Shown here in pieces: positions 16,601-20,856 of a DNA stretch of 20,856 nucleotides. Source of the DNA: a virus (Duplodnaviria; Heunggongvirae; Uroviricota; Caudoviricetes); the IMG/VR virus record IMGVR_UViG_2529292985_000021, positions 1-20,856 of that record; one strand, 5' to 3'. The number at the start of each line of letters is the position of its first letter. The stretch's first letter is position 1. The position numbers were made by a program.

Positions 16601-19600
16601 CTGTCGTTCAGCCTCCGGCAGTTCTCCCTCCTGTGCATCAAACTTTGCCGTTCGCTGCTGAACAAACGTCAGATATTCAATTCTCTGCAGCCCGTACAGC
16701 TCACTGAGCACCACGGACTGTTTTTCATAATTAAACGTATCCTGTTTCAGAAACATCATGTTCTCCGGATGCAAAAAGCCCCGGATAACCGGGGCAATGA
16801 TGAGTATCGTCCTGTTATGGTGCGCTGACGGTCACCGCAGCCACTGCCACAAACTCTCCGTCAGAGGTCATGCCCACGATGCTGACACTGCCCTGCTTCA
16901 CGCCTTTCACCGTGGCCACAAGCCCGCTCAGGGTCACCGAAGCAGTCTGAGGATCTGACGAATGCACACTGATCGCTTTGTCACTGGCCCCATCAGGTTT
17001 TACTGTAAAGGTCAGTGTGGTGGTTGCTCCCGCTTTGACACTGACAGATGCCGGTGCCACCGTCAGTCCGGTAACACCCACGGTTTCAGCGCCCTCCTCT
17101 GCCAGATACGGACGCCCCACACCGCTGATTTTTACAGTACGGGTCATCACCTCTTTTGAGGTAATGGTTTTACCCAGTGAACTCATCCAGCCACGGAAAA
17201 CATCAACCGTACCGTTGGGGTATTTGATACGAAACGCGCAGACTTCACCGGAATCGAACAACTGAACCAGTTTTTTCTGCCCGCTGTCACCCGGACGCCA
17301 GGCCAGCGTCGCCAAAGTATCACCGACGGATTTCTGCCCCTGGGTTGTCGTTTTCCAGTCTGCATCTTCATCATCGAGATAAGTGTCATCTTCTGCATCA
17401 GCGGTCATTTCGCCAGGTTGCAGATCCTTCACCATCGCAAGACGCAGCCAGTCAGTGTCCGACAAAGGGTTCGCAAACGCATCGCCCTTGCCGGTGTACA
17501 TCCAGAACGTCGTTCCCGCACCTTTCGTCTTTGCCAGTGGATTTGGTGGTAAGCGTCAACGGAGCACCGTATTGACGCTTATTTATTGGTGAGTGCTACG
17601 TTCCATGGCAGGAGTTCGTCAACACGGTTGGAAGGCCATTCCGGCAGTACGCTCAGGATATAGCGCAGATACGCTTCCGGATCGATACCGTTCAGTCGGC
17701 AGGTGCCGATCAGCCCGTACAGTAGCGCACCACGCTCTCCACCGTGATCGCTGCCGAAGAACATAAAGTTTTTCTTTCCGAGACAGACTGCACGAAGCGC
17801 TCTTTCCGCGGCATTATTATCCGCCTCAGCCAGACCATCATCACTGAAGTTGCACAACGCAACCCAGTGCTTCCTGATATACCGGAACGCATCTCTCAGA
17901 CGGCATTTTTTCGATAACGTCTGTTCTTTCTCCTGCATCAGCTTATACAGGGAAGTCAGTAGCGGTTTACTCTGCATTTGCCTGACCGCCAGGCGTTCAG
18001 ACACCGGCAACCCGCGTATTTCGTGCTCGATGGCGTACAGCTCACCGATTAGTTTCAGGGCTTCTTCCGCTGTCGCGCTTTTGGTACTGATATATACATC
18101 GTGGACTTTGCGCCGCGCATGAGCCCAGCATCCTGCTTCCGTCAACGCGCCGCCTTCTCGTTCGGCACTGAACAGCCGATCGTAACCATTAAACGCATCT
18201 GCCTGCAGGATACCCCGGAAGGGACTAAGGTGCTGCTCCGGATGTTTACCCTGATGGTCCGGTGAGTAGGCGAACCAGACCGCCGGAGGCTCTGGCGAAC
18301 CGGCATTCCTGTCATCCCGGACATACGTCCAGATATATCCTGTTTTCGCCTTCTTCCTGCCCGGTGCCAGCACTTTTACTGGTGTGTCATCAGTGTGAAC
18401 TTTGCGGCTGTTCATCACATAACGGTACAGAGCATCATTCAGCGGCGTCATTAACTGGCAGCACGCGTCAACCCAGTTGGAGAGTAATGCACGGCTCAGT
18501 TCGACACCCTGACGGGCAAAAATTTCACTCTGACGATACAGTGGCAGGTGTTCGCAGTATTTTCCCGTTAACACGCGGGCAAGTAACCCCGGGCCCGCGA
18601 TACCACGCTCTATCGGACGGGATGGTGCCGGTGCTTCAACGATGCAGTCACATTTTGTACAGGCTTTTTTTACCCGTTCTGTGCGGATCACTTTCAGAGC
18701 GCTGCTCACCAGTTCCAGTTGTTCTGCGCTGACTTCCCCCAGATAATCCAGCTCACCGCCACACTCCGGGCAACAGCTTTCTTCTGGCTCCAGGCGATTT
18801 ATTTCGCGGGGCAGATGCTCCGGTAACGGGCGACGATGACGAGACTGTCGCAACTGGCGGGGAACCTGCGGATCGTCTTCCCGCCCACTGTAACGATCAC
18901 TGTCCTGTTCGCGTTGTTTCAGCAGGGCCTCAGCCTGTTCAACTTCACGACGCAGTTTTTCAGAACGGGTACCGAACAGCATCCGGCGCAGTTTTTCTAT
19001 CTGAGCCCGCAGATGTTCTATTTCCCGTTCATCTTCTTCGATCTTTTCTTAGGCGCGGGCCAGTGCAGAGCGCAGGAAGGCCTCCGTCTCTTCAACCAGA
19101 CTCAGTTGCTGGTCTTTCTGACGGAGCTGGCATTCCAGTTCTGCAATGCGAATGAGGTATTTTTGATTCATGGCCGTTTTTATAATCCGGCCATGACATT
19201 TTTACAACATTGTCAGTGCGTTAAGGCGGGATGTTTTTGGCTGACGCCAGTCCAGCTTATCGAGGAGCATTGCCAGTTGCGAGCGGGTAATGGATACCTT
19301 GCCGTCACGCACAGCAGGCCAGATAAACTGGCCTTCCTCCAGGCGTCTGGTGAACAGGCACAGACCATCAGCATCAGCCCACAGGATTTTAATCATGTCA
19401 CCCCGTCGGCCACGGAAGATGAACAGGTGACCGGAGAAGGGATTATCATTCAGCACATGCTGTACCTGTTCACCCAGCCCGTTGAAAGACTTACGCATAT
19501 CGGTTATCCCAGCAACGAGCCAGATGCGGGTGCCTGACGGGAGTGAGATCATCGTCCCCACCCGGTCAGTTCACGGATCAACACTGTGAGCAGCTCTGGT

Positions 19601-20856
19601 GAAGGATTTTCCAGCGTCATGTTACCGTGACGGAACTCCACCTTGCAGGAGCTGGCACTAACTGTAGTCTGAGTAGATAAAGACGGAGTAAGAGCAGCCA
19701 CCGGTTCTTTCGGCTCATCCGGCGTTATCTCCACAGGTAATAATTCAACGCCAGTGTCAGAAGAGGTTGTTACCGGAAGACGCCGCGATATGCGCCCTTC
19801 GTTCTGCCAGAGCCTGAGCCATTTGAACAGCAGGTTATCATTGATATCGTGTTCCCGGGCAATACGGGCAACAGAGGCTCCTGGTTGTGAAGCCAGTTTA
19901 ACCATTTGAAGTTTAAACTCATTTGAAAATGATCTGCGGGGTTCTGCAGATAATGCTTTCTGTTCCATAACAGGTGTCCACTAGTTGAAAAGGTGGGCAC
20001 CTACGTTACCAATACAGGCTTAATGGCTACATACGGCGGTCAGTTTACGCTTACCATCATTGCCATCCTTTTCTACGAAATCTTCATTGTAATAAAAGAG
20101 CTCAATATCGCTGCCGTTCACTCTGGCTAACCCCCTGGCAGGCAACTCTATCAGATAGATGTTACGCACCCAGTCAGGATAATTTTCCCAGTTTCCTTCA
20201 TAACGGAAAGAGGCATAAAGTCCTCGGGTCGTTGTCCACTCTTTTGGCATGTCAGCATATTCACATACCGTACCAGCAAAGGTTTCAACTGTGAGTAAAT
20301 CGACCGACTTTGTTGATGGTTTAAACGTTGAGACGAAATAGATATCCGTCTTAAAATCCTTCATACACTTGGCTAAATGATGACGTCGCAATTTGACTTC
20401 TTCATCCGGTAATGACTCCAACTTACTGATAGTGTTTTATGTTCAGATAATGCCCGATGACCTTGTCATGCAGCTCCACCGATTTTGAGAACGACAGTGA
20501 CTTCCGTCCCAGCCTTGCCAGATGTTGTCTCAGATTCAGATTATGTCGCTCAATGCACTGAGTGTAACGCTTGCTGATAACGTGCAGCTTTCCCTTCAGG
20601 CGTGATTCATACAGCGGCCAGCCATCCGTCATCCATACCACGACCTCAAAGGCCGACAGCAGGCTCAGAAGACGCTCCAGTGTGGCCAGAGTGCGTTCAC
20701 CGAAGACGTGCGCCACAACCGTCCTCCGTATCCTGTCATACGCGTAAAACAGCCAGCGCTGACGTGATTTAGCACCGACGTAGCCCCACTGTTCGTCCAT
20801 TTCAGCGCAGACAATCACATCACTGCCCGGTTGTATGCGCGAGGTTACCGACTGCG

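Follow-up and report, generated by a model that had tools for sequence, protein, structure and literature searches.

The IS66-family element of the window is a hybrid or degenerate copy and no fresh insertion, and on balance it probably arose by homologous exchange between the copy at the prophage tail gene V and the copy at the chromosomal ykgA/eaeH locus in the lineage of Shigella dysenteriae CDC 74-1112. Because its two flanks would come from two different copies, no matching target-site duplication is seen around it. The window, namely the whole stretch of DNA analysed, is the entire 20,856-bp draft contig AERM01000114.1 (GCA_000193895.2) of this strain, and the element at 17549-20054 is labelled ISa here (Table 1). 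As reference we used the closest closed relative, CP026840, with its tail-side locus L011 and its ykgA/IS1-side locus L025; the tail side of the window has 2 mismatches in 10,687 nt to the former, and the ykgA/IS1 side is identical to the latter at 802 of 802 positions. An Rfam scan of the window gave zero matches, and our literature search on the assembly of GCA_000193895.2 found no account of it, just a strain table.

Table 1. Features of the window at the V, ISa and ykgA junctions
Feature	Position	Strand	Remarks
V, lambda-type tail tube gene, 5'-truncated	16815..17548	-	Alignment with intact V (L002); Pfam Phage_TTP_12 and Big_2
V-side 8-bp flank, ATTTGGTG	17541..17548	.	On both sides of ISa in CP026840, a genuine target duplication
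ISa, complete IS66-family element, 2,506 bp	17549..20054	-	Ends GTAAGCG...CGCTTAC
ISa end beyond tnpC (conventional right end)	17549..17581	.	24-nt terminal inverted repeat and internal hairpin
tnpC, DDE transposase, 530 codons	17579..19171	-	In-frame stop; Pfam
tnpB, TnpB_IS66, 116 aa	19202..19552	-	Pfam
tnpA, HTH_Tnp_1, 139 aa	19549..19968	-	Pfam
Terminal inverted repeat, tnpA end of ISa	20031..20054	.	...ACGCTTAC
ykgA-side 8-bp flank, CATCATTG	20055..20062	.	Same junction at the native ykgA/eaeH locus, 14 closed genomes
ykgA internal fragment (chromosomal AraC-family regulator, GyrI-like part)	20055..20410	-	Without last 38 nt; IS1 cuts upstream
Partial IS1	20408..20856	-	End GGTAATGACTCCAACTTA...; runs off contig end

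As to the element itself, both the gene set of the IS66 family (tnpA, tnpB and tnpC with DDE_Tnp_IS66) and terminal repeats of the GTAAGCG type are present, with Pfam E-values of 5.6e-15 for HTH_Tnp_1, 2.8e-36 for TnpB_IS66 and 2.6e-96 for DDE_Tnp_IS66, and with zf-IS66, LZ_Tnp_IS66 and DDE_Tnp_IS66_C as further domains. Counted by hand, the two terminal inverted repeats agree at 20 of 24 positions (a repeat search gave 29 nt at 83%, with 5 flanking nt included), and the right end holds a hairpin, GTAAGCGTCAA-N12-TTGACGCTTA, of -12.7 kcal/mol (z -6.0). The same boundaries are found in more than 15 other copies, among them one in E. coli FDAARGOS_943 (L003) which is 99.5% identical and is flanked by a perfect 8-bp duplication, TTTTAGCT. 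The window copy differs by 1 nt from both copies at L011; most other Shigella copies are 1-3 substitutions away from it, with small indels or an interrupted end in a few, and copies only 1-3 nt apart over 2.5 kb are thus a substrate for recombination. Moreover, the window copy is without the intact transposase frame of an autonomous copy, as a TAA at 19049-19051 turns Glu41 of tnpC into a stop. This change is private to the window copy, all other copies examined having C at 19051 (a GAA codon); the 40-aa ORF specific to the nonsense codon occurs only in the window contig and in one 200-bp contig, where the ORF reaches to within 2 nt of the contig edge, so that its stop codon is putative and the case uninformative.

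The junctions themselves are as the preliminary description had read them. The V frame abuts the ISa end, since the homology to intact V (L002) stops in the alignment exactly at 17548; the other end is followed by an unrelated ORF fragment, now recognised as ykgA, and then by a partial IS1 from about 20408, with 3 nt (GGT) ambiguous at the ykgA/IS1 boundary; and the two 8-bp flanks differ, sharing 3 of 8 positions. An 8-bp target-site duplication is therefore absent from the window copy. In fact, moving either boundary by as much as 12 nt brings up no exact direct repeat of at least 4 nt at the ISa ends, the sole repeat nearby being TTGCCA, 12 nt and 5 nt from the ends, and neither an 8-bp repeat at the refined ends nor the 5' sequence of V beyond 20054 was found. 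That IS66 transposition makes 8-bp repeats holds for this element too: perfect duplications surround the L003 copy and two copies in CP026840 (ATTTGGTG and TCTTCAGG, both at L011), therefore ISa does generate them.

The preliminary description placed the insertion in the first codons of V without a duplication; the missing duplication stands, while an intact V at the time of insertion does not. The gene is recognised as gpV by a tail-tube domain and a C-terminal Ig-like domain upstream of tail genes (L020), followed in the order G, T, tape-measure gene, M, L, K, I and J, with the domains Phage_TAC_2, Phage_tail_T, TMP_2, Phage_min_tail, Phage_tail_L, NLPC_P60, Lambda_tail_I and GpJ at L020. 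Its first 7 nt (ATGACCA) are missing together with the ribosome-binding site, and the earliest usable ATG still present, at 17501, is codon 19 and yields 228 aa. In CP026840 the ATTTGGTG on the far side of the V-side ISa adjoins the true terminus of an ISEc49-like IS66-family element; because of this, the first 7-8 nt of V and the 3' part of U must have gone before ISa arrived, and the 8-bp target of ISa straddled the ISEc49-like end and V.

The preliminary description further proposed that the event removed everything upstream of V, and this is not supported: the copies at V and at ykgA are inverted in CP026840, so that an exchange between them need delete nothing, and relatives lost the head and early prophage genes through other events, namely an IS4 insertion at the prophage gene FI (class A loci), by which the prophage is already cut there. 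In these class A relatives only a 34-bp perfect-hairpin scar remains at V, and judging from its sequence, two inverted ISa copies would leave precisely this scar after a deletion between the 10-bp direct repeat TAAGCGTCAA at their outer ends. The class A genomes also have 142 nt beside their truncated U; these were first assigned to the ISEc49-like element as its left inverted repeat, but more likely they are the 3' part of the ISEc49-like tnpA, after an 8-nt ISEc8-like terminus.

Both window junctions are old and shared, yet they lie on different ISa copies in closed relatives. The ykgA'/ISa junction with CATCATTG occurs at the native locus in 14 closed genomes, and V is linked to ykgA in none of these 14. 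Each window flank is found in relatives with a different partner flank: at V the partner is ATTTGGTG, TCTTCAGG or GTCCCAGT, and at ykgA it is GACGCCGG (eaeH), ACTCATAT or an IS110-interrupted end. In CP026840 the ykgA copy (about 3.18 Mb, plus strand) and the V copy (about 4.45 Mb, minus strand) are inverted and 1.27 Mb apart, and IS1 is there a simple insertion splitting ykgA. A second ISa near the V-side copy is flanked on either side by TCTTCAGG in this genome, while in the sister genome L010 (a 3.27-Mb contig) the two V-region copies have swapped flanks, ATTTGGTG/TCTTCAGG and TCTTCAGG/ATTTGGTG, with the intervening 2.4-kb ISEc49-like segment inverted relative to L011; L010 thus documents an ISa-by-ISa inversion at the same V-side copy. 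That the two junctions pre-exist apart and in inverted orientation, and that a similar flip occurred at the V-side copy of a sister genome, is therefore shown.

The proposed course of events is as follows. One ISa inserted at the V/ISEc49-like junction and duplicated ATTTGGTG, and another sits at ykgA/eaeH with CATCATTG as its right flank; RecA-type homologous recombination between these near-identical inverted copies would then have swapped the flanks in the CDC 74-1112 lineage, leaving a hybrid ISa that is flanked by V and, at its opposite end, by ykgA'-IS1, hence without a matching duplication. A single exchange between the inverted CP026840 copies predicts precisely the window order IS1-ykgA'-ISa (tnpA to tnpC)-V-tail. 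Since the parental copies are inverted in CP026840, the recombination would invert the segment between them, about 1.27 Mb in this nearest closed genome, and thus the flank exchange is probably a large inversion. The private nonsense base is the only difference between the window copy and the V-side copy of CP026840, and two SNPs private to the ykgA-side copy of CP026840, at window positions 18730 and 19190, are absent from the window. This counts against the exchange, although the copies are too similar for SNPs to place a crossover; the absence would fit a crossover in the last 864 bp, SNPs of later origin or an assembly consensus equally well. If the SNPs are older than the exchange, the crossover is constrained to those 864 bp. 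The reciprocal product is unrecognisable by short junctions, because an exchange leaves each junction unchanged and alters only their pairing.

Whether the exchange happened in the chromosome or in the assembler has to be weighed next, for the copies in CDC 74-1112 could be arranged as in CP026840, with the assembler entering ISa from V and leaving it beside ykgA', in which case the missing duplication would be an artefact. We regard such a chimera as a possibility to be taken seriously, not as the expected outcome. It is favoured by the nature of the window as a complete draft contig terminating inside IS1, by the multiplicity of ISa (at least three copies per genome in the loci retrieved, and 25 places in FDAARGOS_943), by an IS interior common to all copies save one base, and by the breaking of most drafts at V/ISa, V-bearing contigs being mostly 2-20 kb; moreover, the V-ykgA linkage is unseen in the closed relatives and rests on one draft contig, because the complete RefSeq E. 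coli genomes hold no place covering at least 80% of either junction query, and so yielded neither empty nor reciprocal sites. Against it, the substitution at 19051 is unique among the copies, which is unexpected from a collapsed-repeat consensus and argues for copy-specific reads; genuine flips and deletions have occurred at the same ISa copy in long-contig or closed genomes (L010, L006); and the V-carrying draft L012 (GCA_000268105.1) has contigs crossing complete IS4 and IS1 copies in closed-genome order. On balance we infer that the exchange probably took place in the CDC 74-1112 chromosome.

The preliminary description had offered either a deletion or a recombination between two copies, and of these the two-copy exchange is retained, as the junctions are separate in closed relatives, while the deletion is not. 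In the latter, ISa would have entered an intact V, and an adjacent deletion or recombination between direct copies would have removed U, Z, head, lysis, replication, immunity and integrase. The window indeed has no duplication and neither U nor the V start past 20054, and in the relative L006 a truncated IS4, ISa and V follow one another with FI-FII-Z-U' deleted, so a deletion of the type first proposed is real there, though not demonstrably in the window. Nevertheless this course is very unlikely for the window: the ykgA'/ISa junction pre-exists at its native locus and is no new deletion end-point, the ISEc49-like terminus had replaced the 5' end of V ahead of ISa, IS4 already cuts the prophage at FI in the class A relatives, and recombination between inverted copies 1.27 Mb apart inverts, whereas a deletion of that size would be lethal. 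Still less credible, indeed scarcely worth entertaining, is that ISa transposed directly without a duplication or that true ends elsewhere hide one; nothing more than the bare absence of a repeat speaks for it, whereas more than 15 independent copies agree on the ends, three ISa copies have perfect 8-bp duplications, shifted boundaries reveal no repeat, and the window copy has the tnpC stop at codon 41.

For a Shigella IS without a target duplication, the case teaches that an exchange of flanks between copies, or a join made in draft assembly, should be considered first, and not a novel mode of transposition or a large deletion of recent date. The inversion, if real, brings an ipaH-carrying prophage remnant close to rcl/ykg in a single strain of S. 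dysenteriae. The phenomenon is already well known, IS-driven genome scrambling being well documented in Shigella, and the case, as one more instance of it, has little weight beyond bookkeeping. More tentatively, and with the odds rather against it, the hairpin-forming end of ISa may act as a recombination hub. Several side observations touch on this end: at V, the target used by ISa took in the terminal base of a different IS66-family element; three separate ISa copies carry an IS110-family ("RNA-guided") element at one and the same point of this end, GTAAG^CG; and inverted ISa pairs collapse to a 34-bp palindromic scar. Were such targeting of IS ends programmed and not a coincidence, this would be a natural example of an IS family that homes on another family's termini.

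Compared with known systems, ISa is like the IS66 family in its tnpA-tnpB-tnpC genes, its GTAAGCG...CGCTTAC termini and the 8-bp duplications of its undisturbed copies, its nearest E. coli relatives being of the ISEc43, ISEc23 and ISEc47 families (names of the NCBI annotation pipeline; 92-96% DNA identity where compared); the window copy is unlike a typical IS66-family insertion in its mismatched flanks and the nonsense codon in tnpC. The "nearly precise excision" of the composite transposon Tn10 deletes the DNA between short direct repeats that lie inside its inverted IS10 ends, and the class A 34-bp scar likewise fits a short-repeat deletion at an inverted ISa pair; it differs from the Tn10 case in that the scar is in relatives and absent from the window, and its mechanism is read from sequence alone. 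The closest likeness is to the IS-mediated inversions and deletions of Shigella, where dispersed identical copies recombine, flanks swap and duplications mismatch; of 114 reconstructed inversions, 103 were placed on branches of Shigella, and certain lineages are enriched in IS66 (PMC8072062). From these rearrangements the present case does not differ in kind, and only its putative locus pair is particular to the strain, namely V in the pgl-side prophage remnant together with ykgA/eaeH.

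Between the prophage gene V and a fragment of the chromosomal gene ykgA (ykgA'), the window carries a complete copy of ISa, an insertion sequence whose gene content, domains, termini and, in undisturbed copies, 8-bp duplication were all found to be those of the IS66 family, of which it is a member. Its termini are GTAAGCG...CGCTTAC with terminal inverted repeats agreeing at 20 of 24 positions, and a strong terminal hairpin lies only at the end beyond tnpC (17549-17581, -12.7 kcal/mol, z -6.0), the tnpA end (20013-20054, -1.5 kcal/mol) being without one. Since E. coli FDAARGOS_943 holds a copy of 99.5% identity with these very boundaries, flanked by TTTTAGCT as a perfect 8-bp duplication, the ends are correctly placed and such a duplication is normal for ISa. 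The window copy itself has neither a target duplication nor an intact transposase: codon 41 of tnpC (Glu, 19049-19051) has become an in-frame TAA through a C-to-A change at 19051, and this change, shared by none of the 13 other full-length copies compared, is either a real inactivating mutation or an error of draft sequencing.

Features of the window around and beyond ISa
Feature	Position	Strand	Remarks
ipaH	2570-4396		type III secretion effector E3 ligase gene
Lambda-type tail module: V, G, T, tape measure, M, L, K, I, J, lom, tail fibre, ipaH	left of ISa	minus	
ISa	17549-20054		complete IS66-family element, 2,506 bp
tnpC	17579-19171	minus	expected Pfam domains; in-frame TAA
tnpB	19202-19552	minus	expected Pfam domains
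tnpA	19549-19968	minus	expected Pfam domains
ykgA'	20055 to ~20410		internal piece of chromosomal regulator gene ykgA; last 38 nt absent
IS1, partial	after ykgA', off contig end		

The 8-bp flanks of this copy differ, ATTTGGTG on the V side and CATCATTG on the ykgA side, and no direct repeat was found at its ends with the boundaries moved by up to 12 nt. Compared with the intact V of FDAARGOS_944, V homology ends exactly at 17548; the truncated gene is without ATGACCA and the ribosome-binding site, its frame reaches a stop four codons inside the IS end, and its first remaining ATG is codon 19. Past 20054 there is no V 5' sequence, and the ykgA piece, from a gene adjoining eaeH and rclCBA in E. 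coli, stands there instead, followed by IS1. In fact the preliminary description, which had V running into the IS, unlike flanks and foreign DNA beyond 20054, was right in every particular as an observation, and as shown below its interpretation stands in part. At the other extreme the contig begins within chromosomal ybhD, followed by pgl, ipaH and the tail-fibre genes (window 1-6500), so that chromosomal pgl and ybhD lie beyond the tail module; as ipaH is placed between pgl and the tail-fibre genes, the prophage remnant is an ipaH carrier beside pgl.

Of the blocks in the collection, 165 encode the truncated V protein, and 14 of these have contigs >1 Mb (closed or near-closed genomes), and the junction, ...GGATTTGGTG followed directly by GTAAGCGTCAAC, is common to all V loci examined. 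The class B loci (L006, L010, L011) have a full ISa at V, and the class A loci (L005, L007, L008, L009, L012, L014) have only a 34-bp perfect hairpin, GTAAGCGTCAACGGAGCACCGTATTGACGCTTAC, past which come CCTGAAGA, 134 nt of a foreign element, an 8-nt ISEc8-like terminus, truncated U, Z, FII, FI and IS4; L013 is a class A variant with an IS110-family element within the 34-mer. The window tail region has 2 mismatches in 10,687 nt against L011, the V locus of the nearest closed genome (CP026840.1), versus about 48 against class A loci. The V-linked ISa of L011 is bounded on either side by ATTTGGTG, a true target duplication, and past the far copy follows ...TAAGCTTCCGGGG, not the start of V. This is the real end of an IS66-family element of ISEc49-like type, homology to which stops exactly at ...GGAAGCTTAC in many unrelated E. 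coli genomes. The 8-bp target of ISa therefore comprised the element's last base and 7 nt of V, and the start of V and the 3' part of U were gone before ISa came. An insertion of the IS into a V still intact, the original reading, is thus not supported, the duplication in L011 straddling the ISEc49-like end and V.

On the ykgA side, ykgA' encodes a 114-aa product that is specific to the junction, as its C-terminal tail continues into the end of the IS. Fourteen closed genomes carry this product, all with the order rcl genes, ykgA 5' part or other ISs, IS1, ykgA' and ISa; in these genomes IS1-ykgA'-ISa is the native chromosomal locus. The right-hand 802 nt of the window are 100% identical to this locus in CP026840 (L025). 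The other side of this ISa shows either eaeH directly, with the flank GACGCCGG, or an IS110-family element in the ISa end and then eaeH or an integrase island, or the flank ACTCATAT (L027), and V stands beside the ykgA-linked ISa in none of the 14. In five loci (L023, L024, L028, L029, L030; ~7530-10035, minus orientation) this ISa is without duplication, GACGCCGG versus CATCATTG, and 392 bp are missing relative to E. coli 90-3040, namely the 3' end of eaeH, the DNA between the two genes and the terminal 38 nt of ykgA, which is an IS-adjacent deletion.

Exchanges between ISa copies are also seen within the relatives. L011 has a second ISa, inverted and 2.4 kb off, which interrupts the ISEc49-like element and is flanked by TCTTCAGG at either end. 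L010, a contig of 3.27 Mb from a long-contig assembly, shows the two copies with their flanks exchanged and the intervening segment turned round, as homologous recombination between inverted IS copies characteristically leaves them. In L006 (6781-10000) the far flank of ISa, GTCCCAGT, lies within a truncated IS4 joined straight to ISa and then V, with FI, FII, Z and U' missing. Upstream prophage genes have here been lost in a genuine IS-associated deletion of the kind supposed in the preliminary description, in a relative and not in the window strain. Among the loci retrieved the duplications match in 3 ISa copies and mismatch in 10; in this lineage unlike flanks are the norm.

Because both junctions of the window pre-exist, neither a new transposition nor a new adjacent deletion is needed or supported. 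CP026840 has the ykgA copy at ~3.18 Mb (plus strand) and the V copy at ~4.45 Mb (minus strand). One crossover between the two, oppositely oriented as they are, would invert the 1.27 Mb between them and produce IS1-ykgA'-ISa(tnpA>tnpC)-V-tail, exactly the order of the window when its minus strand is read, with no loss of DNA required. Such an exchange leaves each short junction sequence unaltered. Of the two routes offered in the preliminary description, recombination between two copies is thereby favoured, the junctions existing separately beforehand, but deletion of the upstream genes is not, since nothing need be lost; a loss of that kind is seen in a relative, L006.

More probably than not, the window ISa is a real hybrid copy. 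The near-identity of ISa copies (1-3 mismatches across 2.5 kb), the flips and deletions at this copy in long-contig or closed genomes, and the very high frequency of inversion in Shigella, where 103 of 114 reconstructed inversions map to Shigella branches (PMC8072062), all count for a real inversion. That the V-ISa-ykgA' link is a chimera of draft assembly through the repeat is less probable but a serious alternative, with which the absence of V-ykgA' linkage from all 14 closed relatives agrees, as do the support for a join through a multi-copy repeat from one draft contig only, AERM01000114.1 (20,856 bp; GCA_000193895.2, listed as Shigella dysenteriae CDC 74-1112 in a published strain table), an IS interior equal to the common ISa sequence except at base 19051, and the absence from the contig of both SNPs that mark the ykgA copy in CP026840. 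However, the A at 19051 is private to the contig, and a collapsed-repeat consensus would not contain such a base. Exact protein matches show this contig to be the window in its entirety, and closed genomes of the same lineage can serve as references for it.

The prophage U/V junction (L011 1-7447; L010) holds a nest of three IS66-family elements: ISa, the ISEc49-like element, whose left end is missing, and an ISEc8-like element of 2,442 bp, which lies also within tnpC of another ISa copy (L018/L019 7525-9964), where 8-9 nt (GAACATCTG) are directly repeated on its two sides. An IS110-family element of ~1.5 kb is inserted at one and the same point, GTAAG^CG (equal to window position 17553/17554), in the hairpin-forming end of three different ISa copies, the overlap being 2 nt, AG: the V-side 34-mer of L013, the ykgA copy (L021, L022, L025, L026) and an ipaH-linked copy (L018, L019). 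Its ORFs bear Pfam DEDD_Tnp_IS110/Transposase_20 domains, and in E. coli RMDEC465 the annotation 'RNA-guided transposase' is given to an IS110-family element that overlaps a copy resembling ISa. By their position these insertions look like site-specific targeting of IS66-family termini.

As a flank exchange between dispersed IS copies, the window case belongs to textbook Shigella genome dynamics and is not novel; mildly unusual, beyond this main finding, are the IS66 nest, the recurrence of the IS110-family element at one position of the ISa end, and the 34-bp hairpin scar. In class A the scar (locus positions 9920-9953, plus strand; -13.6 kcal/mol) consists of two ISa ends head to head, and its sequence fits the exact product of a deletion between a 10-bp direct repeat, TAAGCGTCAA, at the outer end of each of two ISa copies in inverted orientation, repeated there because the ISa end has an internal hairpin. 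In this respect the scar of the relatives would be similar to the nearly precise excision of Tn10, a deletion between short direct repeats.
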